A stretch of 64,000 nt of DNA from a virus: positions 5,110-69,109 of IMG/VR virus record IMGVR_UViG_3300029319_000025; one strand, written 5' to 3'. Both the position numbers and the translations under genes were made by a program. How positions within the stretch are numbered: the first letter of the stretch is position 1; every line of letters starts with the position of its first letter. Positions 15,801 through 54,175 of the stretch are shown one piece after another. The notes under the pieces are model-generated. The model worked only from the letters and a program-made list of their open reading frames with translations, was not told the DNA's origin and made no database searches.

Positions 15801-16790
15801 GCAGCTCCAGATTTACCATCGGCTTTTGATACAGATGGTTTTTACAGAATTATTTCTTATCTAGGACATCATAGCTCAGCAAATAACAATGAAATGATAA
15901 AACAATGTATTGTTATTCAAGTAGCTAACAACCAAATAACAAACTTTTTTAGTTCTAATTTAAATAATACGCCTACTAATATAAACCAACAGTTTATGTT
16001 AAAAACAAATGATTTATTTGCTTTTCAAAACAATAACTCAAGAGACGTATTTAATATAACTTTAAGAGCAATACAAAGCAACCAAATAACTGGTACTGAA
16101 AATATAACTGTTACTGTAATAAACTCAAAACCAACAGCAAATACTCACGCTAGTATATTAATACCTAGCACTACAACAGCAGGTCCTGGTGGTGGTAAAA
16201 ACTTAGCAACACTAACAGCTGTTAATGGTTCTGCAGATCCTCTTAATAATACTTTTGGATTAACAAGTACTATAGGTGGAACAAATGCTAGTTCTTTTGA
16301 GCTAAATCAAAATCAATTTGCTCCAGGTAACTTTATTTTAGGCGCTAGTAGCACTTTTAATTTTAGTGCTTTATTTGGAACTCCTAACAACGGTGTTTAT
16401 CCTAACTCACCTTCAATAAATTGGCAAGTTGAAGATAATGGTGGTTTAAACTCTCTTTTAAACGGTAGTTTACCAACTACTATAAGTTTTATAGGTGTTC
16501 AAGTTGTAAACGTACAAGGTTTTCACTCTTCAGTAAGTGGTGCAGAAGCGTGTACTGGTGTTCAAACTCAAACTTTAACTAGCTACGCTGTAACAAAAGG
16601 ATCTGCTAATACAATGTACACACAAGCAGGTGGATTACAGGTTGGTAACAAAGTATACACTAATAATAATTTAACACAAACTCCTGGCGCTGGTTTTATA
16701 GCAATAGCAGTTGGATCAGGCCACAAGTCTTATCCAATAAATGCTTCAGGAGCAATAACAGGCGCGGGAACTACGTGCGTAATAGTATAA
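12822..16790 (+). CDS. Tail stabilisation/nozzle protein, N-terminal part (P22 gp10/muzzle-like) with C-terminal extension
   Basis: GKMNLDLDERIIPKGEYRKAQN start, LYWTDNYNQPRYI propeller motif, RFAYRYKY, YQVGIVLVDRYGR. Confidence 0.7.
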   Translation: MAQLKNMFIKGKMNLDLDERIIPKGEYRKAQNILVTNSEDSDVGAIENVRGNELVGDTSLNLGNGIEDTGVCIGSYVDVSKERIFWFITNFTSTQPESGINNVDRASSSHNENCRIIMREKTGSIHVLVDGVFLNLTTTHHITGVNVVGNYLYWTDNYNQPRYIDIELAKSDGSYYNCEDKISVAKVAPFIPPFLHNSNEAGSNANLGDGYTLRTTDPTSSSQHTKSEYMEEKFIRFAYRYKYSDNTYSIISPFTQNVFKPLANGQMKFGSTSKTGSGSGDLANEPVVSNSIQYIYTHNEVPIMKNAYDKVVMRIPIPTCSDNGIISEHNTAGNQISSNSYPNLLKIDSIEILLREAGTNSIQIVDTIDLINTAGLNFGRYKQKIATSGGFYYRQTVEYTYIARDPFKVLPEKQLIRVGDNAPVRAKAQEVVGSRLVYGNITLGYDLPRDEDNKRGIKFFVTSGPKGKNEQGYTANSIGHYFHNHEQYKFHNIKQRRTYQVGIVLVDRYGRTSPVIPSTYKTTNLGDTHTVDAVTADLSVNFNNGNADVYSWSDTGLAYGQALSVEFPDSRIVETNRTYNRTDRPNGWYSWRIVVKQVEQDYYNVYTEHPMNNWTVEDATTTSFTGYRDQHIKGKFSTAPGSKSWFTLSNDNINKVPRSIKNFNDDGRDFGVNRDGFGRLISSSNEGLSGSEEKLYPKVVQKSSTIAGRYFDSQMGDPQQDYINVLSIGSAIDQGLSSLSNAKRDDGQNNANSVQDSLYEDRPRPYSFLADNHKNPLVAEIPNLYLEPVAVSGEFNVNGSDVIRTSNNNLSNMPFGYPKGKDRGLTVFETKPFESNIDIYYETSSCGLVRDLNEHCDYANQGPTNIRITPTFQESSFTAGLAANILEEAKFTSTPGQNHAQVGALTATPYNDGSNPTITSFEILACSNGFNDGNDLSKFSIAFEDDKSFVKISSVQNTQAAADSFNLSTGGTVLRLDYKNIRNLTATSTNFVDAAPDLPSAFDTDGFYRIISYLGHHSSANNNEMIKQCIVIQVANNQITNFFSSNLNNTPTNINQQFMLKTNDLFAFQNNNSRDVFNITLRAIQSNQITGTENITVTVINSKPTANTHASILIPSTTTAGPGGGKNLATLTAVNGSADPLNNTFGLTSTIGGTNASSFELNQNQFAPGNFILGASSTFNFSALFGTPNNGVYPNSPSINWQVEDNGGLNSLLNGSLPTTISFIGVQVVNVQGFHSSVSGAEACTGVQTQTLTSYAVTKGSANTMYTQAGGLQVGNKVYTNNNLTQTPGAGFIAIAVGSGHKSYPINASGAITGAGTTCVIV

Positions 16791-21202: not shown

Positions 21203-24200
21203 ATGTACGAATTAAACGGCACTACATATTCGCTAGAAGAAATAGAAAAAGCCGCTGAGCAAAGTGGTATGACTTTACAAGAGTACATTGCTGCTAGCGG
21301 TATGGGTTTTAGCGAGGAAGGTAAAAAACAAAGAGAAAAAATTAAAATTGATGACTTTGACGCTGGGGCTGAGTTAAGTACTGCAGGTAGTAAATTTTGG
21401 GCTACTATGAATGATGTAGGCGCTAATCTATCTGAGTTTCCTGCTTTTATGAATAGACTTAAGTTTTCAATAACTAGAGGTTTTTTATCAGACGAAATGA
21501 AAGAAACTATATCTAAAATGGATCCAGTTCAACAAGATGCTATTGCTCAGAGTCTCGGTGGTGTATTTGCTAGTACATATGGTATGGATCCGATTGGGAT
21601 GTTAGCTAAACCAGGCCAAGAAAAAGCTGCAGAGCTAAGGAAAAACGCTGAAAAACTAAGAGAAAACTTAATAAAATACGATACCGATATATATGATACT
21701 ATATTCAAAGAAGGTAATATAGGCGAAGGTGTTACTAGATTAGTAACAGAAGCAATAGGTACAGCTCCTACTATACTACAAGCTATGATACCATATGTTG
21801 GTATACCTTCTATTGTAGCAGGTTCTGCTGCTGAAGCCTCAAGAGAAGCTGTTTATGAAGAAGGTAAAGACATAAACATAAAACAGCAACTTTATTCTGC
21901 AGGTATAGGTATGTCTGAAGGACTACTTGAGCTTGTTACTAAGAGAATAGGCATGTCAGCTTTTAAAAACATAATAGGTCAGCCAAAAGAAGTTGTAAAG
22001 AAAACATTACTTGAAACCGCTGGTGGTATAGTTAAAGCTGGTGGTGCTGAAGGTTTATCTGAAACTGGTACTTTAGCTTTAAACAAGTTTTTAGAATCTA
22101 AGTATTACAATGAAAAAGGCTTGTTTGAAATGGACGTTACAAAATGGGAAGAGTTTTGGGACGAAGCTGGTGATACATTTTTAATAGGTATGGCAACAGG
22201 TAAAGGTATGTCAGGTACTGGCGCCGCTGCTTCATATACAAGAGACGCTATTGGTGGTAGATCTGTAAGAAAATCTCTAGACAAAACAAATGTTAGCGAG
22301 GTTTCAAGTGCTTTTTTAAACGAAAATGTAAATGAAGATGTTATAGAGCTAGGTAGAAACCAGTTTGCATCAAGAGCATTAGATATAGAACTTAATAAAA
22401 AAGTAAAATTCAACGAAATATCACAAGAAAAAGCTGACGAAATAAAGAAAAACTTTAACAATGCTAGACAGTCTATACAGTTAGCTGATAATTTAAAAAT
22501 AGGTGATAAACTTATAAATGAAACAGTAGGATTATTACAAGAAAGAAACAACCTTGCAGCTAGAATTAAACAAGCTGGAGAGAATAAAGCTCTTGTAAAA
22601 ACAGATATTGAAAGACTAAATGAAATAGACAATAGATTAGGTGATATTAGTGTTCAAAACCAATTAGATATTAGAAATCAAAAAGTAACTGATATACTAA
22701 CTGGTATTGAAAGTATAAATATAGAAATAGCAAACAATCAACAAGAAGCAGATCAAATAGCTAAAGATAAAAATTTAGATAAAAAAGCTTCTTCAGAAAG
22801 AGGTTTTATATTACAAAACACAGAAACAGGTGAACAAACTATAGTAATAAATAATGATGTTGCTCTTGCTGATAAAGACGTTAATGTTGCCGCTCATGAA
22901 TTATTACATGGTGTTTTATTTCAAACTGTAAAAAATAGCCCTGAAACAGCTCAAAACCTTGCTAACGCTTTAAATGAAGAAATAAATAAAATAGATACAG
23001 AAGCGTTAAAAGATAGTGATTTTAAAACTAGACTAGATCAATATAAAAACGAGCCTGCAGAAATACAAGCCGAAGAAACTTTGACATTGTTTGCCGATGC
23101 TATAGCTAACGGTGAAATAAAATATAACGAAACTGTTTTTACTAAAATAGGTGATGTTATTAGAAGATTACTTCAACAAGCAGGTTTATCAAATATTAAG
23201 TTTAATAATTCGCAAGATGTATTTAACTTTATAAAAGATTATAATAATAGCATAGTAAAAGGCGAGTTAACAAAAGCACAAAAACAACTTACAGAAAAAG
23301 CTGCAGAAGGTGGTTTAGTGTCAACACCTACAAATCAACAGGTTAACATTAAAAAATCATTAGCTACTAAAGTTGATAGTAAAAAAATAGAAGCTGATTT
23401 TAAATCTAGACTAGATCAATTTACTGGTACAGCTGAACAAAGAAAATACACAAGCGATGCAGAGTTTAAAAAATCAAATGATTTTGCTCAAGCAGCTTTA
23501 GCATTAGAAGAAGATCCAGCTGTACTTAAAAAAATAGAAAAAGAATTTTTAAGGTATAACGTAAATCCTACAACCCAAAATATAACAGACGCTTCAAGAA
23601 TATTATCAGATAAATTTATGACTACTTTTAATGTAGAAAAAAATAGTTTATTTGGTTGGGCTTTAGGTAAAACACCTGTATTAACAAAAGCTGTAAATAC
23701 TGTTATAGAAAAAGAAACTAGTAGACCTGATGCTGGCGCTGCTTCAATAGATCAAACTTTTGGTGAAGATCAAAGAGGTTTTGATGTTGTTGACGATACA
23801 GATATTAATGATATTATACAAAATAATATTGATGGCGACAAGTTAAGACCGAGATCAAAGGTTGGTCAAAAAACCATGCTAAATGGTGAAAAGTTATTTG
23901 ATGATAACATAGTAAAAGCTATGAAAGCAAAGGCTTTAGAGGTTTTAGGTAAAGACTATGATATAACTAGTGATGAGTTTATAAAATTTGTTACAGATGA
24001 GTTTAACACAACTATAAGGCCAGTATTACAAAAGAAAATAGGTAACGAAGCAGCTTATAGAAAATTTATAGAAGAAAACCACGAAACAGATGGTGATCCT
24101 TTTCAAGAAGGTAATATACCTTTAGCTGACATTGTTCAGATGGAAAAGATGGAAGATAACAAGGTATTTACTGAAGAAATACAAAGAAACTTAAAACCAA

Positions 24201-27200
24201 AAGCAGTAGACGCTGCTGTTAAAGCTAACAAGTTACCAAAAGGTACTAATAGATTATCTGGTCCTACGCTTTATAAATACGGTAAACCAACAGTAGACGA
24301 TAAAGTAAACTTTATATATGGTGTTAAAGGATCGAAAAGAGGTACCAGAAAAGATAGAACATTTTTAAATCTAGGTTTAAGAGCTATGTTTGACATGCTT
24401 GTAACTCAAGCAACGGAAACTAAAGTACCACAAAAACAAGTTACTAAATTAGCTGCAAAAGTAAATGTACCACAAAATATTAAATTTGCTAAATCTGTTA
24501 CAAAACAAGTGCAAGAGTACGGTGCTAGAACTAGAGCTCGTAATGAGTTTCAAACTATAAATGGTAAGAAACTAGCTAAAACAGATCCTGCTGTAAAAAA
24601 CAAAGCAAAAGAAGAAATAATACCTTCTCTTAAAAAACTATCAAAAGAAACAAGAGTGCTAATGCTTTATACTATGCAGGGTACTGGTAAAGATAAAATA
24701 GATGGTACGCTTGGTAGGTCTGGTATGATATTTCCAAACAAGCAAGCGGCCATGGACGCTTTAGGACTTACACAGCAAGATATTAAAAACACTGATATAA
24801 AAGACGCTCAGAACTATGCTGGTAAATCTGTATTAAGTACAAGTAAACTACCTATAGATTTAATTAAAAACTTATTAACAGACGGTAATTTACACTTAAC
24901 AATAGCTAGAGAAAATTTAGCTAAAGAAACTAAGTTAAAACAAATAGTAACTGAATTAGCTAATTTATCTGCTAAAAACCCTGATATAGCTGCTGGATTA
25001 AATCATATAATAGGTTTACAGTCAGATTATCAAGGACATTTTATTAGAAAGCTTGTAACGTTTCAGTCTTTTACAGATCCTAAGTTATTAAGTAAAGGAA
25101 TACACGATGAGCATTACTCTAAATCATTAAGAACAACTAGATTTGTACAGTCTATAATAGATAAAGCAGCTACAGAAGGTGAAGATTATTTAAGTCAAGA
25201 ATTAAACGATGATTTAGAAAACTTAGTACAAGGACAAGCTAGAGGTATTGTATCTAAAATAGAAGGTAATAAATTTGATGAGAAAAAAGGTATAGGCGAA
25301 CAAAACCACATAGCTCAAACACCGTTTGAAGAGGTTTATAAAAAAGTACAAAACCCTAAAAAACATTACATACTTCCTTATACTAGATTAAATCCTACTA
25401 GTGAAGTTAAAACATTACAAGAGGTAGCTGATAATAATTTTAAAAGAGTTAAAAACTTTAAATACCCTAACCAATTAGTAAAACTAAGTAAAAGCAGTAA
25501 TTCAGATAAAATACTAAACGATTTAAATAATTACGATAAAGCATTGCGTAATGCCAAAGATCTAAAAGCACCTAAAAAAGGTATTAGTGTATTTGATTTT
25601 GATGATACTTTAGCTACAACAAAAAGTAAGATTATTGTTACTATGGCCGATGGTAAAGTAAAAGAAATAACACCTGCTGAATTTGCAAAGCTACATAGTA
25701 AGTTAGAAAGTGAAGGAGCAACATTTGATTTTAGTCAATTTAACGAAGTTATAGATGGTAAACCAGGGCCTTTAGCTGCTAAGCTTAAAAAAGCAATAGA
25801 TAAGTTTGGTAACAAAGATGTATTTGTTTTAACAGCTAGACCAGCTGCTTCAGAACAAGCTATATATGAGTTTTTAAAAGGTATAGGTTTAGAAATACCA
25901 TTAGAAAATATAACAGGTTTAGAAAACGGTACACCTCAAGCAAAAGCAAACTGGGTTGTTGATAAAGCAGCACAAGGTTATAATGATTTTTACTTTACTG
26001 ATGATGCTTATAAAAATGTAAAAGCAGTGCAAGACGCTCTTGAAGTATTAGATGTTAAATCTAAATCAAGAGTAGCTTATGTTGATAGAGTATCAAAATT
26101 AGATAAAGATTTTAACGATATACTAGAAGCTAAAACAGGTATTGCTGCAGAAAAAGAATATAGTCCAGCTAAAGCTAAAGTAGTGGGTGCTAAAAAAGGT
26201 AGATTTACATTTTTTATACCACCATCAGCAGAAGATTTTGTAGGTTTATTATATAATACACTATCAAAAGGTAAGCTTGGTGATAATCAAATGGCTTGGT
26301 ATAAAAAGAACTTACTAGATCCCTTCGCAAGAGCTAACGCAAATATATCAAGAGAGCGTATAGCTTTGATGAATGATTATAAAGCTTTAAAAAATCAACT
26401 AAACATTGTTCCTAAAAACTTAAAAAAGACAATACCTGGTGACACATATACTAGAGAACAAGCTGTTAGAGTTTATATATGGGATAAACAAGGTATGACT
26501 GTTCCAGGGTTAAGTAAAGCAGATTTAAAAGATTTAGTTAAATACGTTAATGGTGATGCTGCTTTAAAAACATTTGGTGATCAGTTGATAAATATAAATA
26601 AAGATGATGGTTATGCAGCTCCTACTTCTGGTTGGCTAGCAGGAACAACTACAACGGATTTATTACAAAACATTGGAACAACAAAAAGAGCTAAACATTT
26701 AGCTGAATGGCAGCAAAACGTAGATATTATATTTTCTGAAAAGAATTTAAATAAAATGGAAGCTGCCTTTGGTAAAGCACATAGAATAGCTTTAGAAGGT
26801 ATATTAAAACGTATGAAAACTGGTAGAAACAGAAGTTTCCAAACAGATTCATTAACGGGTAAAGTTACAGATTGGTTGACAAATAGTATTGGTACTATTA
26901 TGTTCTTTAACACAAGATCAGCATTACTACAAACAATATCAGCTGTTAACTTTATTAACTTTAAAGATAATAATATATTTAAAGCTGGTAAAGCATATGC
27001 TAATCAAAAACAATATTGGTCAGACTTTATGACTTTAATGAACTCAGACTTTTTAGTTGATAGACGTAGAGGATTAAGAATAAATGTAAACGAAGCTGAT
27101 ATAGCTAACATGGCACAAGAAAGTGGACCAAGAGGTGTTATAAGTAAAATGCTTGAAATAGGGTTTTTACCAACACAAATAGCTGATAGTTTTGCTATCG

Positions 27201-28084
27201 CAAGTGGTGGCGCTACAATGTATAGGAATAGAATTAATACGTATAAAAAACAAGGATTTAGTCAAAAAGAAGCTGAAAAGAAAGCATTTAATGATTTTAG
27301 AGAAATAGCTGAAGAATCTCAACAGTCTAGTAGACCTGATAGAATATCCGCTCAACAAGCAGGACCATTAGGTAGAATAATACTAGCGTTTGGTAATACA
27401 CCTATGCAGTACGCTAGGTTAATTAAAAAAGCCGCTTCTGATCTTAAAAACAGAAGAGGTGACTGGAAAACAAATGTTTCTAAAATTATATACTATGGTG
27501 CTGTACAAAATTTAATATTCAATGCTTTACAGCAAGCTATATTTGCTATAGCGTTTGGCGATTCAGATGAAGATGAAGAAGAAAAAAAATATTTAAGTAT
27601 AGCTAATGGTATGGCAGACTCGTTATTAAGGGGTGTTGGTATTGCGGGCGCTTTTGTGTCTGTCGGTAAAAACGCTATAATAAGAATAATGAATGAGTCA
27701 GAAAAACCTAATCCTAAATATGAAAAAATAGGTTATGAGTTAACTAGAATATCACCACCAATATCATCAAAGTTATCAAGATTAAATCAAGCCGCTAGAT
27801 CTTTACAATGGGATAAAGAAGAAATGATGCAAAAAGGTTTATCATATGATAATCCAGCTTGGTTAGCAGGTGCAAACGTAACATCTGCTATAACAAATGT
27901 ACCTGTTGATAGATTAGTCAAGAAAACAACTAATGTAATTGATGCAACAAGTCAAGATCTTGAAATGTGGGAAAGACTAGCTTTATTAGGTGGTTGGCAA
28001 AAATGGGAACTAGATATGACTGATGATAGAAAAACTAAAAAATCTAAAAAGAAAAAATCATCAGGGCCTAAAAGAAGATTTTAA
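21203..28084 (+). CDS. Giant internal/ejected polyvalent protein with zincin HExxH and HAD-phosphatase domains
   Basis: AAHELLHG (22895-22909) with downstream AEE; HAD motifs VFDFDDTL (~25595), VLTAR, FTDD. Confidence 0.75.
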   Translation: MYELNGTTYSLEEIEKAAEQSGMTLQEYIAASGMGFSEEGKKQREKIKIDDFDAGAELSTAGSKFWATMNDVGANLSEFPAFMNRLKFSITRGFLSDEMKETISKMDPVQQDAIAQSLGGVFASTYGMDPIGMLAKPGQEKAAELRKNAEKLRENLIKYDTDIYDTIFKEGNIGEGVTRLVTEAIGTAPTILQAMIPYVGIPSIVAGSAAEASREAVYEEGKDINIKQQLYSAGIGMSEGLLELVTKRIGMSAFKNIIGQPKEVVKKTLLETAGGIVKAGGAEGLSETGTLALNKFLESKYYNEKGLFEMDVTKWEEFWDEAGDTFLIGMATGKGMSGTGAAASYTRDAIGGRSVRKSLDKTNVSEVSSAFLNENVNEDVIELGRNQFASRALDIELNKKVKFNEISQEKADEIKKNFNNARQSIQLADNLKIGDKLINETVGLLQERNNLAARIKQAGENKALVKTDIERLNEIDNRLGDISVQNQLDIRNQKVTDILTGIESINIEIANNQQEADQIAKDKNLDKKASSERGFILQNTETGEQTIVINNDVALADKDVNVAAHELLHGVLFQTVKNSPETAQNLANALNEEINKIDTEALKDSDFKTRLDQYKNEPAEIQAEETLTLFADAIANGEIKYNETVFTKIGDVIRRLLQQAGLSNIKFNNSQDVFNFIKDYNNSIVKGELTKAQKQLTEKAAEGGLVSTPTNQQVNIKKSLATKVDSKKIEADFKSRLDQFTGTAEQRKYTSDAEFKKSNDFAQAALALEEDPAVLKKIEKEFLRYNVNPTTQNITDASRILSDKFMTTFNVEKNSLFGWALGKTPVLTKAVNTVIEKETSRPDAGAASIDQTFGEDQRGFDVVDDTDINDIIQNNIDGDKLRPRSKVGQKTMLNGEKLFDDNIVKAMKAKALEVLGKDYDITSDEFIKFVTDEFNTTIRPVLQKKIGNEAAYRKFIEENHETDGDPFQEGNIPLADIVQMEKMEDNKVFTEEIQRNLKPKAVDAAVKANKLPKGTNRLSGPTLYKYGKPTVDDKVNFIYGVKGSKRGTRKDRTFLNLGLRAMFDMLVTQATETKVPQKQVTKLAAKVNVPQNIKFAKSVTKQVQEYGARTRARNEFQTINGKKLAKTDPAVKNKAKEEIIPSLKKLSKETRVLMLYTMQGTGKDKIDGTLGRSGMIFPNKQAAMDALGLTQQDIKNTDIKDAQNYAGKSVLSTSKLPIDLIKNLLTDGNLHLTIARENLAKETKLKQIVTELANLSAKNPDIAAGLNHIIGLQSDYQGHFIRKLVTFQSFTDPKLLSKGIHDEHYSKSLRTTRFVQSIIDKAATEGEDYLSQELNDDLENLVQGQARGIVSKIEGNKFDEKKGIGEQNHIAQTPFEEVYKKVQNPKKHYILPYTRLNPTSEVKTLQEVADNNFKRVKNFKYPNQLVKLSKSSNSDKILNDLNNYDKALRNAKDLKAPKKGISVFDFDDTLATTKSKIIVTMADGKVKEITPAEFAKLHSKLESEGATFDFSQFNEVIDGKPGPLAAKLKKAIDKFGNKDVFVLTARPAASEQAIYEFLKGIGLEIPLENITGLENGTPQAKANWVVDKAAQGYNDFYFTDDAYKNVKAVQDALEVLDVKSKSRVAYVDRVSKLDKDFNDILEAKTGIAAEKEYSPAKAKVVGAKKGRFTFFIPPSAEDFVGLLYNTLSKGKLGDNQMAWYKKNLLDPFARANANISRERIALMNDYKALKNQLNIVPKNLKKTIPGDTYTREQAVRVYIWDKQGMTVPGLSKADLKDLVKYVNGDAALKTFGDQLININKDDGYAAPTSGWLAGTTTTDLLQNIGTTKRAKHLAEWQQNVDIIFSEKNLNKMEAAFGKAHRIALEGILKRMKTGRNRSFQTDSLTGKVTDWLTNSIGTIMFFNTRSALLQTISAVNFINFKDNNIFKAGKAYANQKQYWSDFMTLMNSDFLVDRRRGLRINVNEADIANMAQESGPRGVISKMLEIGFLPTQIADSFAIASGGATMYRNRINTYKKQGFSQKEAEKKAFNDFREIAEESQQSSRPDRISAQQAGPLGRIILAFGNTPMQYARLIKKAASDLKNRRGDWKTNVSKIIYYGAVQNLIFNALQQAIFAIAFGDSDEDEEEKKYLSIANGMADSLLRGVGIAGAFVSVGKNAIIRIMNESEKPNPKYEKIGYELTRISPPISSKLSRLNQAARSLQWDKEEMMQKGLSYDNPAWLAGANVTSAITNVPVDRLVKKTTNVIDATSQDLEMWERLALLGGWQKWELDMTDDRKTKKSKKKKSSGPKRRF

Positions 28085-45499: not shown

Positions 45500-46267
45500 T
45501 TAAAGATAATCAAGCACTTGCGAGTGATCAACATTCTCTATAAGCTTTTCTACAGCTTGCTTTTTTAACTGTGAAACACGTACGTAAGCACTGCTGCCTT
45601 CGATACCTAATTTAGCTGCAATTTGTTTTGCAGACTGCTTATCACAGTTCAAGCCGTAGCTCATAACCAATACATTATACTCTTTGTCGTTTAAATGTTT
45701 TCTTAACAAACCGTCAAGGTAAGCATTTAACAAGTGCATGTTATATGGTTCTGATTTATCTGGTATTTGTAATACCATATCTTCTTCTTGGTTGTTCTTA
45801 GGTTTTTCATCTATACTTAAAAATATAGAATTAAAGAACATTGCTACCATCTTTTTATCTTTACCAAAGTTTTTACGTATCTCATTTAGTTTGTGCTCAG
45901 GTATTCTCATGTCACCACGATTAATATCTATAGCTCTACGTATTGCACCTCGTATACGCTTTGATAAAAAGCTTTTCATTGTTTTTTCTTTGTCTTCTGA
46001 TTTATCAAATAATTCCCAGTCTATTCTGTCAACAGCTTTTGTTAAACCAGCATTACCCTCTTGTATGAGGTCCATGATAGTCATAACACCTGAAGCTTGT
46101 TGACTAGTTGAAAATTTTCTTGCTATGTTTTCAGACAAAGGTAAGAAGTTTGTAATTAACTGATCTCTTGTTAATTCTTTATATTCTTTGAATTTAGGCA
46201 AAGCCCAGATCAGTTCTTGTACTTGCTCCTTGTAAATAACATAGTTTCGTATATTATAACTCTTCAT
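45500..46267 (-). CDS. Phage RNA polymerase sigma-70-family factor
   Basis: Region 2 DLIQEGNAGLTKAVDR, IRGAIRRAI...MRIP; region 4 SYGL...IAAKLG...VSQLKKQAVEKL. Confidence 0.88.
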   Translation of the reverse strand: MKSYNIRNYVIYKEQVQELIWALPKFKEYKELTRDQLITNFLPLSENIARKFSTSQQASGVMTIMDLIQEGNAGLTKAVDRIDWELFDKSEDKEKTMKSFLSKRIRGAIRRAIDINRGDMRIPEHKLNEIRKNFGKDKKMVAMFFNSIFLSIDEKPKNNQEEDMVLQIPDKSEPYNMHLLNAYLDGLLRKHLNDKEYNVLVMSYGLNCDKQSAKQIAAKLGIEGSSAYVRVSQLKKQAVEKLIENVDHSQVLDYL

Positions 46268-48830: not shown

Positions 48831-48864
48831 TTATTATCCGACTTCATTCGTATTTAGTTTGTAT
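48831..48864 (-). promoter_or_regulatory. Early promoter-like repeat, copy 1
   Basis: ATACAAACTAAATACGA-N9-GATAATAA. Confidence 0.75.
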
Positions 48865-49385
48865 TAATCTACTTTTTTATCCCACATAGCATTTATTTTT
48901 TGCTGCTCTTTTTTATCCCACATAGCATTTCTTTTTTGCTGCTGTTGCCATCTAGTTTCACCGTTTGTAAAATCAGTATATTCCATGTCGGTAATATATT
49001 TAGTTATAATTTTATGAGGAGGTAATACAAATACATTTCTATTTGAGTAGTTATCCCAACAACTTACCCATATATCTTTTTTACCTGTCCATATAATATA
49101 AGTATAATGGTGATCTATATTAATCCAGTTGTTATATAAGTAGCAACTGTCATAGTACATATCATGAACTAATTTTGCAGCAAGCCTAGCACCATCCATA
49201 GTATCATTTCCAGCTTGTAACCAATTAGCTATTTGTACTGCTTGCCACTCAGGATAACCATCATGGTGCATATACATATTTACCCTGCTATTGTCAGCAA
49301 AAGCTTCAGGTGAGTCAGCAAAACCTAGATCACTTTGTTCTGCATGTCGTCTATCGACAACCATAATCATATTTCTTGTAGCCAT
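48864..49385 (-). CDS. Conserved phage early protein (Y.H.DGYP motif)
   Basis: MATR...YMHHDGYPEW; duplicated NAMWDKK at the C-terminus. Confidence 0.7.
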   Translation of the reverse strand: MATRNMIMVVDRRHAEQSDLGFADSPEAFADNSRVNMYMHHDGYPEWQAVQIANWLQAGNDTMDGARLAAKLVHDMYYDSCYLYNNWINIDHHYTYIIWTGKKDIWVSCWDNYSNRNVFVLPPHKIITKYITDMEYTDFTNGETRWQQQQKRNAMWDKKEQQKINAMWDKKVD

Positions 49386-49386
49386 A

Positions 49387-49575
49387 TTATTTAGTTTCTA
49401 TGTAGCCCGCGTCAATTAAATCTTTTAGTGTACGCCCAAACCAACCTTGCAGGCCATTATAAAGTTTGTGGTCGTATATATATTGCCATGCAGCTAATAC
49501 TTCATCGCTGTCTTTTGGTTGTACAAAGCCTTCGGCTATGCCAACAGCTTCATAACTAGTCATTTTTCTTTTCAT
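49387..49575 (-). CDS. Hypothetical protein
   Basis: AWQY...LQGWFGR motif; coupled ORF. Confidence 0.7.
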   Translation of the reverse strand: MKRKMTSYEAVGIAEGFVQPKDSDEVLAAWQYIYDHKLYNGLQGWFGRTLKDLIDAGYIETK

Positions 49576-49886
49576 AATCTATCTCTTTCATTAAATAATG
49601 CGTAACCAAGTTTCGCGTAGTTTATTATATCACCGAACCTACTAATCATAGGCTCTGCTCTATTTAGATCGTGGTTGCTAACATGAGCAGCAACAGAACT
49701 AACTTGCTTATCAAAGTAAGCATACCATACTACCAACGGATCTACACCTAGCTTTTTAGCTGTAGACTTAAAGTTATTTAGTACGTCCTCGTCCTTCATA
49801 GTATATTCAGGACCTTTCTTTCTCATAGTATCTCTAGCATATTCATCTAGCTTACTTGCTAATATATCAAATTCTGTATCTTTCAT
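49572..49886 (-). CDS. Nucleotide-modification-associated (DUF1599/MazG-like) protein
   Basis: KKG.EY...NF...K...D.INYA pattern. Confidence 0.55.
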   Translation of the reverse strand: MKDTEFDILASKLDEYARDTMRKKGPEYTMKDEDVLNNFKSTAKKLGVDPLVVWYAYFDKQVSSVAAHVSNHDLNRAEPMISRFGDIINYAKLGYALFNERDRL

Positions 49887-50147
49887 TTAATCTAGTAATT
49901 TCATGTAGCCTTTCACATCAGTGGCTGCGAACCAGTCAAGACCTTTATGGAAGTCATTAATAACTTGTTCATCGGTGTTACCCATTTCAAAAGTCATTTG
50001 TGCACCCATTATAAAGTCATACATAGATAACTGTGCGGCTGTTAGTTCATACTCCTCTCCACTGAAAGGATTTGTAACGGTGTCGCCGTGTGTATAGCAT
50101 ACACCGCTAAACCATTTTGGTAGTGTGTTTTTGTCTTTTTTACTCAT
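49887..50147 (-). CDS. Hypothetical protein
   Basis: ORF track. Confidence 0.7.
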   Translation of the reverse strand: MSKKDKNTLPKWFSGVCYTHGDTVTNPFSGEEYELTAAQLSMYDFIMGAQMTFEMGNTDEQVINDFHKGLDWFAATDVKGYMKLLD

Positions 50148-50370
50148 CGCTTAAAAATTTACTACCATACATAATATCATGTGCGGTAAGTTGATATGTG
50201 TACAAGTCGGAATAAGAACATAGATCGCTAACATCTTGTATATGTAAGTCTGACCATATGTTATTAGCCATTAACTTGTACGATAGTCTTTGTGCTGTGC
50301 TATATTTTTTAGCATTAGCTTTCAGAGCTTTTTTAATCTCTGGTTTTAGTAATTCGTATAGGTTTTTCAT
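50140..50370 (-). CDS. Hypothetical protein
   Basis: ORF track; downstream of promoter copy 2. Confidence 0.7.
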   Translation of the reverse strand: MKNLYELLKPEIKKALKANAKKYSTAQRLSYKLMANNIWSDLHIQDVSDLCSYSDLYTYQLTAHDIMYGSKFLSDE

Positions 50371-50385
50371 ATTTATTATTTAATT

Positions 50386-50419
50386 ATATTATCCAACTTG
50401 TTTCGTATTTATGTTGTAT
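50386..50419 (-). promoter_or_regulatory. Early promoter-like repeat, copy 2
   Basis: ATACAACATAAATACGA-N9-GATAATAT. Confidence 0.75.
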
Positions 50420-50422
50420 TAG

Positions 50423-50527
50423 TGGACGTGGCAGGATTCGAACCTGCGTTAGTAGTCACGGTTTTCCATCCGATGGGAGTTACCTATGTTGTTATCTCCA
50501 TATCACTACTCTTACCATTTCACGCCC
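50423..50527 (-). ncRNA. Miniature tmRNA-like RNA (tRNA-like domain only, Ala identity)
   Basis: Acceptor GGGCGTG/CACGTCC with G3:U70, A73; stemless D-loop AAATGGTAAG; helix AGTAGT/ACTACT; AAC linker; T-arm GCAGG-TTCGAAT-CCTGC; 48-nt insert. Confidence 0.7.
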
Positions 50528-50531
50528 ATAA

Positions 50532-50626
50532 GGCAGCAGTTGCGGACTGGTAGTTACCTAGTATTGTCATTTATCCGCTCTTTCTGTTTCGGGTATGGAC
50601 CCTAACGTGACCAGTATGCCGCCGCC
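50532..50626 (-). ncRNA. Putative structured small RNA B
   Basis: Closing stem GGCGGCGG/CTGCTGCC, second stem ACTGGT/ACCAGT, inner hairpin GGGT-CCAT-ACCC; GC-rich and non-coding. Confidence 0.5.
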
Positions 50627-50630
50627 AAAT

Positions 50631-50702
50631 CGCCTCACATAATACACTTCCGTACGCTCGCTTATACCCGTCGGTAGTCGGCACCACATAATGTTTTTGG
50701 CG
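50631..50702 (-). ncRNA. Putative structured small RNA A
   Basis: CGCC/GGCG, ACATtATG/TATtATGT, CCG/CGG stems and TACC-GACG-GGTA hairpin. Confidence 0.4.
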
Positions 50703-50716
50703 TTGTAAATGTAAAT

Positions 50717-51016
50717 TTACATTGGTTTATCTGTTTCTATATGTTTATGTGTTGTAACCATCCACTCACAGTCGCTTACTTTGTGACCTGCGCCATATAA
50801 AAACGCTTCACAGGACTCTGAGTCAGGATTCCAACCATTTTCTTCGTTAGCTAATATGCTAATGTCATACCTGTACACATTACCATCTGTAAAATCTAGT
50901 ACAAATATATAACTTGCATTGTCTCTTGCTACATAGTTTGTAGGCTTGTTTTCTTCTTGCATTTCTGCATATGCTTTTTTTGAATCACTCATAAGTATAT
51001 CTATTATTCTATTCAT
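50717..51016 (-). CDS. Hypothetical early protein
   Basis: ORF track. Confidence 0.7.
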   Translation of the reverse strand: MNRIIDILMSDSKKAYAEMQEENKPTNYVARDNASYIFVLDFTDGNVYRYDISILANEENGWNPDSESCEAFLYGAGHKVSDCEWMVTTHKHIETDKPM

Positions 51017-51017
51017 A

Positions 51018-51230
51018 TTATCTTAGGCACGTGCCATAACCTCTGCGAGCGGTTAGCTTACGTATTCTAGCTGCTTGGGCCTTTGGCATGATTTGAATAG
51101 TATTGCCGGTTTTGTGGTATGTGATTGCCACACAGCCATAAGCTTCCGTACTGCTACAGTTAACACATTCAGTATAACCGAGTGCTAACCGCTGTGGAGG
51201 TATTATATTATTGCATTTACATTTTTTCAT
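51018..51230 (-). CDS. DksA/TraR-type C4 zinc-finger protein
   Basis: C.C...IP..RL......C..C. Confidence 0.6.
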   Translation of the reverse strand: MKKCKCNNIIPPQRLALGYTECVNCSSTEAYGCVAITYHKTGNTIQIMPKAQAARIRKLTARRGYGTCLR

Positions 51231-51236
51231 ATATAA

Positions 51237-51270
51237 TTATTATCCTACTGTTGTCGTAATTATATTGTAT
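51237..51270 (-). promoter_or_regulatory. Early promoter-like repeat, copy 3
   Basis: ATACAATATAATTACGA-N9-GATAATAA. Confidence 0.75.
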
Positions 51271-51734
51271 TATTTTTCTTCTTCTTCGTAGTAATCGCCT
51301 GAATCTAATAATTGTTCTTTCATTTCATCGAACTTTTCTTCGTAAACATCTGTCCACCAATTTGTTAATTCGTAGTTGAAATCATATTCCATACTATCAA
51401 ACAAGTGAGGTTCTATCCACACATCACAACCAGATACTAATTCTTGTATCGCTTGATCTGACCACTCTGTGTAATCTTCATAGTAATAACCATCTTGTGA
51501 TACATAGGGTCTTTCTTCGTGAGTACACCAATATATATCATAGCTATCAGCTGTTGATTCACTGTATATTTTTAACATGTGTCTACTATCGTTCCAGTCA
51601 GTAGTATTATCTAACTTACTACCATATTCTGTGTTGATATATTCTAGAAGCCAAGGTGCATCTGGTTCTTCCATGATACCATCTTGCTCTAATTGTTCTT
51701 TGACTATTTCGTCTGTTAATAAAGTTTTGCTCAT
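51270..51734 (-). CDS. Very acidic hypothetical protein
   Basis: ORF track; D/E and aromatic rich. Confidence 0.7.
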   Translation of the reverse strand: MSKTLLTDEIVKEQLEQDGIMEEPDAPWLLEYINTEYGSKLDNTTDWNDSRHMLKIYSESTADSYDIYWCTHEERPYVSQDGYYYEDYTEWSDQAIQELVSGCDVWIEPHLFDSMEYDFNYELTNWWTDVYEEKFDEMKEQLLDSGDYYEEEEK

Positions 51735-52138
51735 TTTGCATAGTTTTTAAGGTAATATTCTAACATATAGTTTAATCTAGCAAGACCTGACCATATTTTA
51801 GCTCTTGCATAGCTAATATATTCTTTGGTTTCTAAACCATCAGGTGTTAGCATTGTCCATCTAACATTTTGCTTGTATTGTTTATTTAGTTGATACGGTG
51901 TGTAGCAACCATTTTGTTTTCTTACGTAACCTGACTTAAAGCAAGCTAATCTTAGTCTTGCTGGCATTTCTAATAACTTGCCGTTATAAAATCTACTACC
52001 AGCTGATACAGGAAACTCAAATTCTCTTGTACCGTTTTTAGCTTGACGTTGTGTAGTCACTTCTTTAATATTATATTTAATAAGCAATTGTCTTACAAAA
52101 GCGTCTTCAAGTGCTTGTTTTTCTTGTTTCCAGTTCAT
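51731..52138 (-). CDS. Hypothetical early protein
   Basis: Start revised to MNWKQEK. Confidence 0.7.
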   Translation of the reverse strand: MNWKQEKQALEDAFVRQLLIKYNIKEVTTQRQAKNGTREFEFPVSAGSRFYNGKLLEMPARLRLACFKSGYVRKQNGCYTPYQLNKQYKQNVRWTMLTPDGLETKEYISYARAKIWSGLARLNYMLEYYLKNYAK

Positions 52139-52139
52139 A

Positions 52140-52349
52140 TTAGTATTGTTTAAGTAAATGTTCAGCGACTTTGGCAGCAGTGAGAGACACGAGGTAACTA
52201 TGAGCTTCGTTATATTCAAGAGGTGTAGAGTCAAGTAACTCGTTGATCTCGTCACCGCTGAGTGTCCAGTCGCATATTCTTATTAGTTCTTCTATTACTT
52301 GTTCTTTAGCATTTTCTGCTAGTCTATCAAATTCTTTAGTTTTACTCAT
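52140..52349 (-). CDS. Hypothetical early protein
   Basis: ORF track. Confidence 0.7.
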   Translation of the reverse strand: MSKTKEFDRLAENAKEQVIEELIRICDWTLSGDEINELLDSTPLEYNEAHSYLVSLTAAKVAEHLLKQY

Positions 52350-52371
52350 AGTTTTATTTGTTTTTACAATA

Positions 52372-52405
52372 TTATTATCTTACTATTATCGTATTTATAT
52401 TGTAT
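52372..52405 (-). promoter_or_regulatory. Early promoter-like repeat, copy 4
   Basis: ATACAATATAAATACGA-N9-GATAATAA. Confidence 0.75.
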
Positions 52406-52409
52406 GTAG

Positions 52410-52472
<63 letters not shown>

Positions 52473-52482
<10 letters not shown>

Positions 52483-52718
52483 ATTTTTACTAAATTCCAG
52501 TCAAGTTTGAAGCCGTCATCATCACCACCAGGTGCATATTTGTTATAAACTTCTACTAATTCTTTAGTCCATCCGCCTTGCTCTGCAAGTTTTGCTTGCC
52601 ATATTTCGCGTTGGCGTCTGCCTTTTTGCCATGCTCTGTGGTCATCTGCCATCATATGAGTATGGTCGTAATGCTCAAACATTTCTTCTAGTGTTAAATC
52701 TTCGTAGTATTCTGCCAT
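52473..52718 (-). CDS. Hypothetical early protein (stop codon lies inside the tRNA 5' end)
   Basis: ORF track. Confidence 0.7.
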
Positions 52719-52728
52719 AGTTTTAGTT

Positions 52729-52920
52729 TTAAGAGTATATTCTACCGTTTACTTTTACCCATTTTTTCATTGAGTAATACATTTTGTTTTCGCTATCATA
52801 GTATTTTGTGTGTGGTGAGAGAGTTAATAACTCTGATTTGCCATTTTTAGTTAACGTGATAGCTTGTGGCACAAAGAAATTACTTGCTTGCGCGCCATGA
52901 AATTTTATAGTATTAGTCAT
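52729..52920 (-). CDS. Hypothetical early protein
   Basis: ORF track; downstream of promoter copy 5. Confidence 0.65.
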   Translation of the reverse strand: MTNTIKFHGAQASNFFVPQAITLTKNGKSELLTLSPHTKYYDSENKMYYSMKKWVKVNGRIYS

Positions 52921-52938
52921 ATTTGTTATTTTATATAA

Positions 52939-52972
52939 TTATTATCTTGCTATGTTCGTATTTAAATTGTAT
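52939..52972 (-). promoter_or_regulatory. Early promoter-like repeat, copy 5
   Basis: ATACAATTTAAATACGA-N9-GATAATAA. Confidence 0.75.
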
Positions 52973-53091
52973 CTTCTATACCATTCATCTTCTTCAAACA
53001 TAAAAGCTTTCTTTGTTAATTTTATTTGCTTGTATTTTCTTGGTTTCGCTTTTGCTCTTGCTTTTGCGAATCTATATAAATCCTTCTTCAT
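52942..53091 (-). CDS. Small basic protein (49 aa, MKKDLYRFAKARAK...)
   Basis: Translated by hand. Confidence 0.5.
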   Translation of the reverse strand: MKKDLYRFAKARAKAKPRKYKQIKLTKKAFMFEEDEWYRRYNLNTNIAR

Positions 53092-53181
53092 ATTTCTTAT
53101 TTTAGCATGGACAGAATATCCATAGTGAAACGTAAAGTAGTGCGAATAAACACACTACAAATATAAAATCTATTATTGCTC

Positions 53182-53316
53182 TTACCATCCTCCAAATGTT
53201 ATAGTTGGATTGTTAAATGCTAAGTGAATAATAATCATTACTATTCCTGATAATGCTAATGTCATAAGTGAATATAATACTGCATTTATTGCGAAGTGTT
53301 GAAACTTTCTTTTCAT
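53182..53316 (-). CDS. Small single-TM protein (44 aa)
   Basis: MKRKFQHFAINAVLYSLMTLALSGIVMIIIHLAF... Confidence 0.55.
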   Translation of the reverse strand: MKRKFQHFAINAVLYSLMTLALSGIVMIIIHLAFNNPTITFGGW

Positions 53317-53338
53317 AGTTATTAAATTTAAGTGTTAG

Positions 53339-53379
53339 TTGCCATGAGTGGAATCGAACCACTATTAACCATTATGGCA
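53339..53379 (-). ncRNA. Anticodon-less tRNA-like minihelix (acceptor + T-arm)
   Basis: TGCCATA-ATGGTTAAT-AGTGG-TTCGATT-CCACT-CATGGCA-A, followed by CTA. Confidence 0.6.
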
Positions 53380-53381
53380 TT

Positions 53382-53417
53382 ACTGACATTTTTTATAAGT
53401 CGAGTCAGTTACGACTT
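53382..53417 (-). other. H-type RNA pseudoknot
   Basis: S1 AAGTCG/CGACTT, S2 ACTGAC/GTCAGT, L1 TA, L2 T, L3 ATAAAAAAT. Confidence 0.65.
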
Positions 53418-53422
53418 TAGCC

Positions 53423-53453
53423 ACCTCAGCTTACTCTGCACTTCGGCTGAGGT
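53423..53453 (-). other. 8-bp hairpin upstream of the pseudoknot
   Basis: ACCTCAGC-N15-GCTGAGGT. Confidence 0.6.
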
Positions 53454-53461
53454 ATTTTTGA

Positions 53462-53689
53462 CTAAACTAACTCTTTGCCTCTAAGTGCTAAAGGAATATT
53501 GTTAGTTGCAGTATAAGACTTATACTTTTCCCAGCAAGGTAAAGATGTAAGTGTTGACTTCATAATGTTGAATGCTTTGTCATGTGAGTAAACATACTTG
53601 TCACCTTTTTTGTTAGTGAATTCAATAGTTACATTTTTGCCGATTAGTGATTTTCTTAGTACAAATCTTTTTGAAATTAAATTGCTCAT
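53462..53689 (-). CDS. First early protein (hypothetical)
   Basis: ORF track; downstream of promoter copies 6 and 7. Confidence 0.75.
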   Translation of the reverse strand: MSNLISKRFVLRKSLIGKNVTIEFTNKKGDKYVYSHDKAFNIMKSTLTSLPCWEKYKSYTATNNIPLALRGKELV

Positions 53690-53725
53690 AGTAAATTGTT
53701 TTTAAATTAATTATTAGTTACATTA

Positions 53726-53759
53726 TTATTATCTATATGACTTCGTATTTATATTGTAT
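53726..53759 (-). promoter_or_regulatory. Early promoter-like repeat, copy 6
   Basis: ATACAATATAAATACGA-N9-GATAATAA. Confidence 0.75.
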
Positions 53760-53855
53760 AAAAGTATATTATTTGTTTAGTATGTAAATTGCTATTAGTA
53801 GTATTCCGCACACTCTCACAACTTCTATATTATTATAAGTATTTATCATATATTA

Positions 53856-53889
53856 TTATTATCTACTACACATCGTAACTATATTGTAT
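53856..53889 (-). promoter_or_regulatory. Early promoter-like repeat, copy 7
   Basis: ATACAATATAGTTACGA-N9-GATAATAA. Confidence 0.7.
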
Positions 53890-54175
53890 ATTAAATTAAA
53901 TAAAAAAAAATAATATATAGTAAAACGTGAAAAATCTATAGAAAAAACATGAAAAAGGGGGCCCGTGGCGTTAAAACAATGCATTTTACAATTTAACCAC
54001 GAAGCGTAGAGGAGGGGCGCAATGCTAAACCTCATCATATCTAAGCATTTTTTAGTGACAGTAGCCTGTAAATCTATACTAGTAATAGGCAGTTGTCACA
54101 CTTTCCCCCTTATAAGATTATACTAAGTATAATCTTTAGGATTAGTATAATTAATAATAGGCAAGTGTCATAGTG
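53890..54175. other. Divergent non-coding region: candidate origin or genome terminus with iteron-like sites and a palindrome
   Basis: Strand switch; TGACA-N3-GCCT sites at 54056(+), 54083-54098(-), 54155-54170(-); AAGATTATACT-A-AGTATAATCTT at 54114-54136. Confidence 0.5.

Follow-up and report, generated by a model that had tools for sequence, protein, structure and literature searches.

The genomic RNAs of tobacco mosaic virus (TMV) and turnip yellow mosaic virus (TYMV) end in an upstream pseudoknot domain followed by a transfer RNA (tRNA)-like structure that is used by tRNA enzymes; ends of this type have a pseudoknotted acceptor arm and an anticodon-like arm and are aminoacylated. Another tRNA-like RNA, mascRNA, is a eukaryotic nuclear, cloverleaf-like molecule of about 61 nucleotides (nt). 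The 3' end of MALAT1 is reported to be made by ribonuclease (RNase) P cleavage at a tRNA-like element (PMC4824109), which lies directly 3' of a compact A-rich structure, a U-rich/A-rich triple helix, that protects the 3' end (PMC4824109, PMC4836648). In plant mitochondria, t-elements, which are non-decoding tRNA-like folds in mRNAs found through a conserved T-loop motif, are described as guiding cuts by RNase P and RNase Z through which mRNA ends are made (Forner et al. 2007, PMC1920247); according to the same report these cuts are proposed and in part shown, t-element ends coincide with mRNA 5' and 3' ends, and the released t-element can be a stable RNA. Mycobacteriophage DS6A is reported to carry a "headless" transfer-messenger RNA (tmRNA) that consists of the tRNA-like domain (TLD) alone (Hudson, Lau and Williams 2014, PMC4131195). 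Here we analyzed an RNA module on the minus strand of a 64,000-nt stretch of an uncultured marine phage genome (IMG/VR record IMGVR_UViG_3300029319_000025, positions 5,110 to 69,109; hereafter the window), in which a hairpin, an H-type pseudoknot and a 41-nt minihelix resembling the top half of a tRNA follow one another behind a conserved early gene (gene 1). The elements of the module are as follows.

53423-53453, minus strand: 8-bp hairpin, arms ACCTCAGC and GCTGAGGT, 15-nt loop with GAAGTGC (read and folded).
53382-53417, minus strand: H-type pseudoknot with two 6-bp Watson-Crick stems (read and scored).
53417-53412 with 53402-53397, minus strand: pseudoknot stem 1, AAGTCG with CGACTT.
53409-53404 with 53387-53382, minus strand: pseudoknot stem 2, ACTGAC with GTCAGT.
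53396-53388, minus strand: pseudoknot loop 3, ATAAAAAAT (9 nt, A-rich); loop 1 is TA (2 nt) and loop 2 is T (1 nt).
53380-53381, minus strand: 2-nt spacer from pseudoknot to minihelix.
53339-53379, minus strand: tRNA top-half minihelix, 41 nt (read; 57.4 bits under the covariance model R1, the window copy being in the seed).
53317-53338, minus strand: 3' trailer CTAA and A/T-rich 22-nt leader to the next start codon, AACTATG (sequence read).

The hairpin, the pseudoknot with its stems and 2/1/9-nt loops, and the minihelix had been proposed by an earlier, sequence-only reading of the window, and all three were recovered here base for base on the minus strand. The minihelix consists of an acceptor stem of 6 bp (TGCCAT/ATGGCA) plus an A:C mismatch, a GG-bearing connector (AATGGTTAAT), a T arm (AGTGG-TTCGATT-CCACT) and a discriminator A, with neither a D stem nor an anticodon arm. 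The minimum-energy fold of the 41-mer is this minihelix (-10.6 kcal/mol, RNAfold), and 10 of 200 shuffled sequences fold as well. A covariance model (R1) was built from eight minihelix copies, and 80 related loci (labeled L here) were gathered via GroEL at 63-84% amino-acid identity. R1 identified 18 full-length copies in the window and 16 loci, all on the gene-1 strand. The minihelix directly follows gene 1 in 17 of the 32 sources with enough downstream sequence, and a variant tRNA-like element occupies the slot in L033 and L052. The slot holds no tRNA-like element in 13 of the 32 sources, in 12 of which gene 1 is at most 48% identical to that of the window; the relatives that keep the slot have gene-1 proteins with only 44-80% identity to that of the window. 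All five whole genome records contain one full copy each.

The pairing of the minihelix is maintained through extensive sequence change. In the group alignment, 96.9% of cells pair, compared with 25-58% in slid controls, and 10 of the 11 pairs are changed on both sides (52 cells); this alignment was fitted by the model, which puts a gap in the wrong place where the bulged C is missing. The acceptor helix, which is free of the gap problem, is 98.1% paired, and all six of its pairs are compensated. The acceptor sequences are diverse (TGCCAT, TGTAGT, AGATAG, AGTGTG, ACTCGT and others), and no aminoacylation identity is kept because they vary freely. Kept across the group copies are the T loop TTCGATT, the GG of the connector, which is of the type AATGGTT or CTTGGAG, and the discriminator A. 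Furthermore, the trailer C(T/A)A stands behind all 18 minihelices of the phage group and is common to phage tRNA-Met genes and tmRNA-like domains. The 65-nt copy in L005 is cloverleaf-like: it contains a small D-like hairpin, and a long arm with a 3-nt loop stands in for the anticodon arm. This form suggests descent from a tRNA or a tRNA-like domain.

The minihelix is also found well outside this phage group. A scan of IMG/VR with the connector and T-loop pattern, the stems being left free, returned at least 117 stretches. Among the matches listed, R1 matched (E <= 0.01) in 65 of 116 new viral stretches, giving 70 viral matches that are all full-length (38-43 nt), and in none of 120 cellular stretches (from a set with a single genome for each prokaryote species). 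Of the cellular pattern matches listed, 119 of 120 fall outside tRNA and tmRNA calls, and the 45 that were inspected have no T-stem pairing. The first viral batch has 97.6% of its cells paired (42-52% in slid controls) and 166 cells changed on both sides, and the two free letters of the connector are nearly always AA or TA. The contigs that carry the family include marine relatives, a set of ~64-104 kb from one sample, contigs of at least 300 kb, GC-rich contigs and contigs with tRNA arrays of 17-23 tRNAs. The element lies outside open reading frames (ORFs) of at least 60 aa in 55 of 59 distinct contexts; in 44 of 58 contexts the end of a same-strand ORF is no more than 150 nt upstream, in 25 of 51 the next ORF on that strand begins within 35 nt downstream, and in 53 of 59 the first letter of the trailer is C. 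The unrelated phage L104, known from ~100-kb contigs, has the order ORF, about 170 nt of non-coding RNA, minihelix, 15 nt and ATG. These observations indicate that the minihelix is a member of a widespread phage RNA family, in these samples found only in viral stretches. Neither the minihelix nor the knot nor the hairpin matches a family in Rfam 15, and full-text searches of the literature did not find phage acceptor/T-arm minihelices described, so the family is apparently a previously undescribed one. One contig, L115, has three minihelices on the minus strand within 1.6 kb (2961-3000, 3266-3305 and 4502-4542), each followed by CAAT and then a short palindromic hairpin.

The pseudoknot shows the same behavior within the phage group. 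Its architecture is shared by the window, L057, L033, L002, L050, L003, L046, L018, L063, L069 and L005, and by the marine contigs L138, L141, L148 and L152. Stem 1 takes the forms AAGTCG/CGACTT, AGTCGT/ACGACT, CGAG/CTCG, CCAG/CTGG and ACTGT/ACAGT, and stem 2 the forms ACTGAC/GTCAGT (window), ACTGTTC/GAACAGT, ACTATTC/GAATAGT, ACTTGTTT/GAACAAGT and ACTTGTTT/GAATGAGT, the last of which contains two G:U pairs. Loop 3 is A-rich in every case, and stem 2 ranges from 5 to 9 bp across the relatives (6 in the window), a length that should be stable without a ligand. The knots were scored with a simple, bulge-free scorer, and their stems are reported per locus and not as a formal pair count. The window knot scores 30, a value reached by 2 of 200 shuffles, or by 0 of 100 when the knot is forced to abut the minihelix (stem-2 end at most 6 nt away). 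Under this constraint, the scorer found a knot in 15 of the 58 distinct contexts; 13 of these belong to the marine group, where the gap from knot to minihelix is 2-4 nt in 11 of the 13. It missed L152, L102 and L002, which has a 49-nt hairpin inserted, and for L063 and L069 it reported other registers. When 11 knots were aligned with MAFFT, stem 1 of the different groups and that of the window fell in different columns. The hairpin is less widely shared: apart from the window, only L057 and L033 have its GAAGTGC loop motif, there on stems that differ in sequence but are compensated, so that the motif is present in 3 of the 19 loci with a tRNA-like element in the gene-1 slot.

Taken alone, the window sequence is only moderately above chance: the fold of the 136-nt region has a z-score of -2.36, and 2 of 200 shuffles are equally good. 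It is on the comparative evidence that the structures exceed chance. The sequence-only reading had named covariation across related phages as the check on its structures; the minihelix pairs do covary, in the phage group as in the first viral batch, and the pseudoknot is conserved, with both stems compensated. Collectively, these comparisons indicate that the structures exist and are under selection, with a fixed position and spacing. Two observations go beyond that earlier reading, namely the family membership in viral stretches and the presence of a tmRNA-like domain on the same connector in the same phage (see below). A second fold, with stem 1 ACTCG/CGAGT, was seen in L008, L158, L073, L040 and L131. 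In L131 its stem 2 is weak or missing, and the recurrence of TTGAA words hints that the sequence should be read differently; no knot is claimed for this fold.

We compared the module with the known systems. The minihelix has an acceptor stacked on a 5-bp T stem, a T loop of the type TTCRANN and an unpaired discriminator, as in the top half of a tRNA. The canonical tRNA family RF00005 (gathering threshold 29 bits) gives no match on 53339-53379 at E <= 10, ARAGORN does not call the element, and the minihelix of L131 reaches 22.2 bits under RF00005, below the threshold. The tmRNA family RF00023 likewise gives no match on the minihelix at E <= 10. Like the TLD-only tmRNA reported for DS6A, the minihelix is a phage acceptor/T-arm RNA with a GG-bearing substitute for the D loop and no anticodon arm, but it has no helix by the connector and its acceptor is variable. 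The minihelix fails the defining alanine-identity feature of the TLD because its third pair is C3:G70 and not G3:U70; across the family this pair is U:A, A:U, G:C or C:G and never G:U. As a non-decoding tRNA-like fold that is intergenic and co-oriented with the flanking ORFs, the minihelix resembles t-elements and mascRNA-type elements in form and setting. It differs from the t-elements, which are reported as degenerate cloverleaves of loose sequence in organelles, in being a 40-44-nt armless fold with a near-invariant connector in bacterial phages and in being coupled, within this phage group, to an upstream pseudoknot. MALAT1 has its triple helix where the phage has an H-type pseudoknot. The order of pseudoknot(s) and then tRNA-like end recalls TMV and TYMV, although the minihelix is internal to an operon of a DNA phage and has a plain acceptor stem.

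Two other families that the sequence-only reading had raised received no support. A ligand-binding knot of the preQ1-I family was not matched at E <= 10 in the window or six relatives, and the same Rfam scan gave no match to ToxI, CptI or TenpI. Mimicry of a type III antitoxin RNA, an option offered in the earlier reading, has little to recommend it: no tandem repeat overlaps 53339-53453, seven neighboring ORFs match no PADLOC model and nine match no Pfam family, so that no toxin or defence match is found among these neighbors.

We tentatively favor the view, to which we give a probability of about 0.45, that the minihelix is a tRNA-mimic processing cassette that is cut by host RNase P and RNase Z, leaving an upstream mRNA capped by the pseudoknot. 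The minihelix would be transcribed within the first early operon and would mimic the top half of a tRNA through its acceptor stem, its T arm and a D-loop-like GG connector that docks on the T loop to form an "elbow", so that the host tRNA-maturation enzymes would take it for a pre-tRNA. RNase P would then cut at its 5' end, between 53380 and 53379, and the 3' end would be finished after A53339, either by RNase Z or by exonucleases followed by the CCA-adding enzyme. The gene-1 mRNA would in this way end 2 nt past a compact pseudoknot with an A-rich loop 3, and the short tail beyond the knot would hinder 3'-to-5' exonucleases; such enzymes need a longer 3' tail for their grip than the 2-4 nt that the knot leaves. 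The downstream mRNA would begin a few nucleotides before the next start codon. We infer all the enzymatic steps and the protective role of the knot from the conserved features and their arrangement. The features by which RNase P, RNase Z and the CCA enzyme recognize their substrates are helix geometry, T loop, GG elbow and discriminator. The processing view fits because these are the conserved features, and the stem features that are read by aminoacyl-tRNA synthetases are not kept in the family. Furthermore, an ATG (in AACTATG, the common context of the group) starts 2 nt after the discriminator in L002 and L048, and an ATG starts 1 nt after it in L102; the fold must therefore be removed or melted for initiation at these sites. 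A processing signal with a pseudoknot-protected 3' end had already been suggested in the sequence-only reading, and it stands as the best-fitting account, given the tRNA features, the trailer, the abutting knot and the close start codons, but as an unproven one.

Several observations weigh against cutting by the tRNA enzymes. Assembled contigs from four metatranscriptome runs cover the early region patchily, which is weak evidence for transcription, and one of these RNA-library contigs, of 151 nt, matches 53324-53457 without mismatch and runs uncut through hairpin, knot and minihelix; it could be precursor RNA or contaminating DNA. Bacterial RNase P prefers a single-stranded leader, and the linker of 2-4 nt to a folded knot may be too short for it. 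The two elements also occur apart: in L004, L009 and L048 the minihelix lies 17 nt after the stop codon without a knot, and L040 and L073 have a similar fold but no minihelix. A single copy per genome means that the minihelix is not general operon punctuation. The connector is near-invariant across very different phages, in contrast to the loose sequence of plant t-elements, a constancy beyond what a simple cutting signal would seem to require, and in L159 and L103 copies stand among tRNA genes, where a cutting signal would be redundant.

The near-invariance of connector and T loop across unrelated phages, on stems that vary, speaks for a different role, that of a trans-acting decoy, which the sequence-only reading had also offered. 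The released minihelix, probably CCA-tailed, would then be an abundant early RNA that mimics the acceptor, T arm and elbow of tRNA and soaks up a host factor. Candidate targets are SmpB, RNase P, the CCA enzyme and a defence toxin acting on tRNA 3' ends by modification or cleavage. The restriction of the family to viral stretches of the samples (65 of 116 viral versus 0 of 120 cellular among the matches listed) points the same way, as do its location in the first early transcription unit, a typical site of counter-defence functions, the copies within tRNA arrays, and the tmRNA-like domain with G3:U70 and a near-identical connector in the same phage. SmpB contacts the helix next to the TLD of tmRNA, and the minihelix lacks this adjoining helix. 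A decoy would still require the processing described above, has no conserved acceptor sequence with which to mimic a particular tRNA, and leaves the fixed pairing with the upstream knot in this phage group unexplained. Inhibition of tmRNA by TLD-like RNAs is reported not to depend on whether these RNAs are chargeable (PMC4131195). On balance, we consider the decoy unlikely. The position of the knot just 2-4 nt from the acceptor 5' end, awkward for RNase P, could instead mean that the 3' side alone is cut and that knot and minihelix stay on the gene-1 mRNA as a retained, CCA-repairable tRNA-like 3' cap, the knot blocking RNase P. The uncut RNA-library contig and the knot-then-tRNA-like order, as in plant-virus 3' untranslated regions, are in line with such a cap, and in L003, L004, L018 and L030 a promoter-like motif lies directly 3', so the minihelix ends the transcription unit there. 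In the window, however, genes follow without an intervening promoter motif; the minihelix stands without the knot in three relatives (L004, L009 and L048) and alone in many other phages, and bacterial RNase P is able to cut substrates with very short leaders. We regard a retained cap as distinctly unlikely.

A fold that is never cut and acts in cis might, for example, occlude or time the translation of the downstream small membrane proteins, or pause or terminate the early RNA polymerase. The distance to the next start codon, from 22 nt in the window down to 1-2 nt in L002, L048 and L102, agrees with an effect on translation, and no intrinsic terminator-like site was found between gene 1 and the next gene. 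Such a fold does not need the exact copying of T loop, GG connector, discriminator and tRNA-type trailer across unrelated phages; moreover, there is no U-run after the minihelix and no match to a ligand-sensing family in Rfam, and we think this explanation improbable. The cloverleaf-like copy of L005, with its hint of tRNA ancestry, would suit a reading of the minihelix as a decaying tRNA gene or as what is left of a tRNA-targeted integration site, with no function at the RNA level. The compensatory changes in 10 of the 11 pairs largely refute such a remnant, and the slot is kept among relatives with widely diverged gene-1 proteins (44-80% identity), which leaves this explanation hardly credible. 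An attachment-site remnant in particular was rejected: both acceptor strands are present and covary, unlike at a site copied from a host tRNA.

Other tRNA-like RNAs are encoded in the same early region. A tRNA-Met at 52409-52482 on the minus strand is the sole ARAGORN call (Rfam 56 bits at 52410-52482). An ORF at 52718-52473 overlaps it by 10 nt (52473-52482, minus strand), with its stop codon inside the tRNA; the homologous ORF of L004 stops immediately 5' of the tRNA. At 50420-50527 on the minus strand lies a headless tmRNA-like TLD, with the acceptor GGGCGTG/CACGTCC including G3:U70, a T arm, a discriminator A, the trailer CTAA, a connector nearly identical to that of the minihelix, and 45 nt in place of the ~300 of tmRNA. 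Its Rfam tmRNA score is 31.2 bits (E 6.8e-11), below the gathering threshold of 47, and ARAGORN does not call it. Homologues are present in L005 (2386-2459) and L009 (2983-3056), and a GC-richer, non-coding stretch of ~170 nt (50530-50700, minus strand) lies upstream of it. Larger RNAs of the same plan, consisting of an acceptor stem, an ATGG-type connector, an inserted domain of 40-90 nt, a T arm and the second acceptor strand, were seen on the minus strand in L002 (814-932), L003 (770-860), L017 (1210-1313) and L048 (3168-3246); the scan for them gave 37 candidates compared with 5-9 in shuffled controls, its weaker rows being noise. Next to these, the minihelix resembles an unfilled form of a tRNA-top-half scaffold on which these phages carry other RNA domains.

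Among cultured phages, the marine crAss-like phage phi14:2 is reported to produce abundant, stable early non-coding RNAs with no function assigned (bioRxiv 10.1101/2020.03.07.982082). In its record (L082, NC_021806), ARAGORN identified an unannotated tmRNA at 4031-4500 on the plus strand with the tag GSSVQKLAMVA (Rfam 46 bits), in a gene-free stretch between the coding sequences 2194-2904 and 4602-4901, and this region appears to be one of the reported RNAs. In Maribacter phage Panino (L083), ARAGORN found a tRNA-Tyr and a second tRNA-Ser at 9238-9319 and 9356-9443 on the plus strand, both absent from the annotation of the record for this stretch.

The module is flanked by the following features.

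53727-53750, minus strand: promoter-like motif (AAATACGA, 9 nt, GATAATA) ahead of gene 1.
53462-53689, minus strand: gene 1, 75 aa, stop codon TAG at 53464-53462 (ORF list).
53182-53316, minus strand: next gene, 44-aa hydrophobic protein (ORF list).

Gene 1 encodes a conserved early protein and is always 5' of the RNA module; homologues were found in 38 of the 80 related loci (tblastn). It matches no PHROG, Pfam or PADLOC entry, and its AlphaFold2 model (mean predicted local distance difference test score, pLDDT, 77) has no Foldseek match in the PDB at E <= 0.001. The sequence-only reading had called it the first early gene, and it is indeed the first conserved ORF on its strand past the divergent region, but a still earlier ORF of 26 codons, which has a promoter-like motif of its own, may lie before it. 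The 44-aa ORF has no Pfam match, and a homologue also lies downstream of the minihelix in L004. A stop-codon readthrough or frameshift signal was considered, the hairpin being 8 nt past the TAG, and was rejected: the gain would be just 11 codons, and stop codon and spacing vary among the relatives. More distant relatives (L047, L016, L076, L059, L032, L043, L010 and L040) have other elements after gene 1; the slot of distant relatives holds 2-3 repeats of TGTATAGCA and an inverted repeat GTGACA...TGTCAC, and the same inverted repeat occurs upstream of gene 1 in the window (~54060-54100, minus strand).

The promoter-like motif, of putative promoter function, is present in six copies with 0-1 mismatch (at 53750, 52963, 52396, 51261, 50410 and 48855), where 0.58 are expected, and in a further copy with 2 mismatches at 53880. 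The copies lie on the minus strand only, within 48832-53880, and divide the early region into short units, two of which end in the tRNA-Met and the tmRNA-like domain, each just 5' of a motif.

The source record is a 69,109-bp virus rated complete, of which the window covers 64 kb. The window is AT-rich, and its genes include GroEL, primase/helicase, ribonucleotide reductase, ligase and a sigma factor. A run of minus-strand genes extends from ~53.7 to 36.3 kb and is divergent from GroEL at 54809. It includes the phage sigma factor (45500-46267, minus strand); on the plus strand are a protein with a crAss-type muzzle domain (12822-16790) and a 2293-aa ORF (21203-28084) that has no Pfam match and a weak tblastn match to phage Panino. 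None of the 36 distinct window ORFs scanned, a subset of the window ORFs, matched a tRNA-processing gene in PHROGs, Pfam or PADLOC. Searches with GroEL and the 2293-aa ORF gave distant phages of marine Bacteroidota as the nearest cultured relatives. The 701-nt region has no blastn match among 50,697 phage records, and a cultured relative carrying the minihelix was not found in the phage collection. R1 finds no minihelix in the regions from Maribacter phage Panino, Cellulophaga phage Calle_1 and phi14:2; its single weak match in cultured-phage regions (18 bits) is an ordinary tRNA-Tyr.

The minihelix family is large, with R1 matches in 65 of the 116 viral pattern matches listed, and has no counterpart in Rfam. 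Annotation pipelines overlook these minihelices, and a covariance model would improve the annotation of phage genomes. If the minihelix is a decoy, it would be a lead to host factors or defences acting on tRNA ends. If host tRNA enzymes cut it, as we tentatively favor, then phages infecting Bacteroidota-type hosts would punctuate operons with a portable 40-nt cassette, pseudoknot-capped and near-leaderless mRNAs would result, and bacterial viruses would have their own equivalent of mitochondrial tRNA punctuation and of the MALAT1/mascRNA system.

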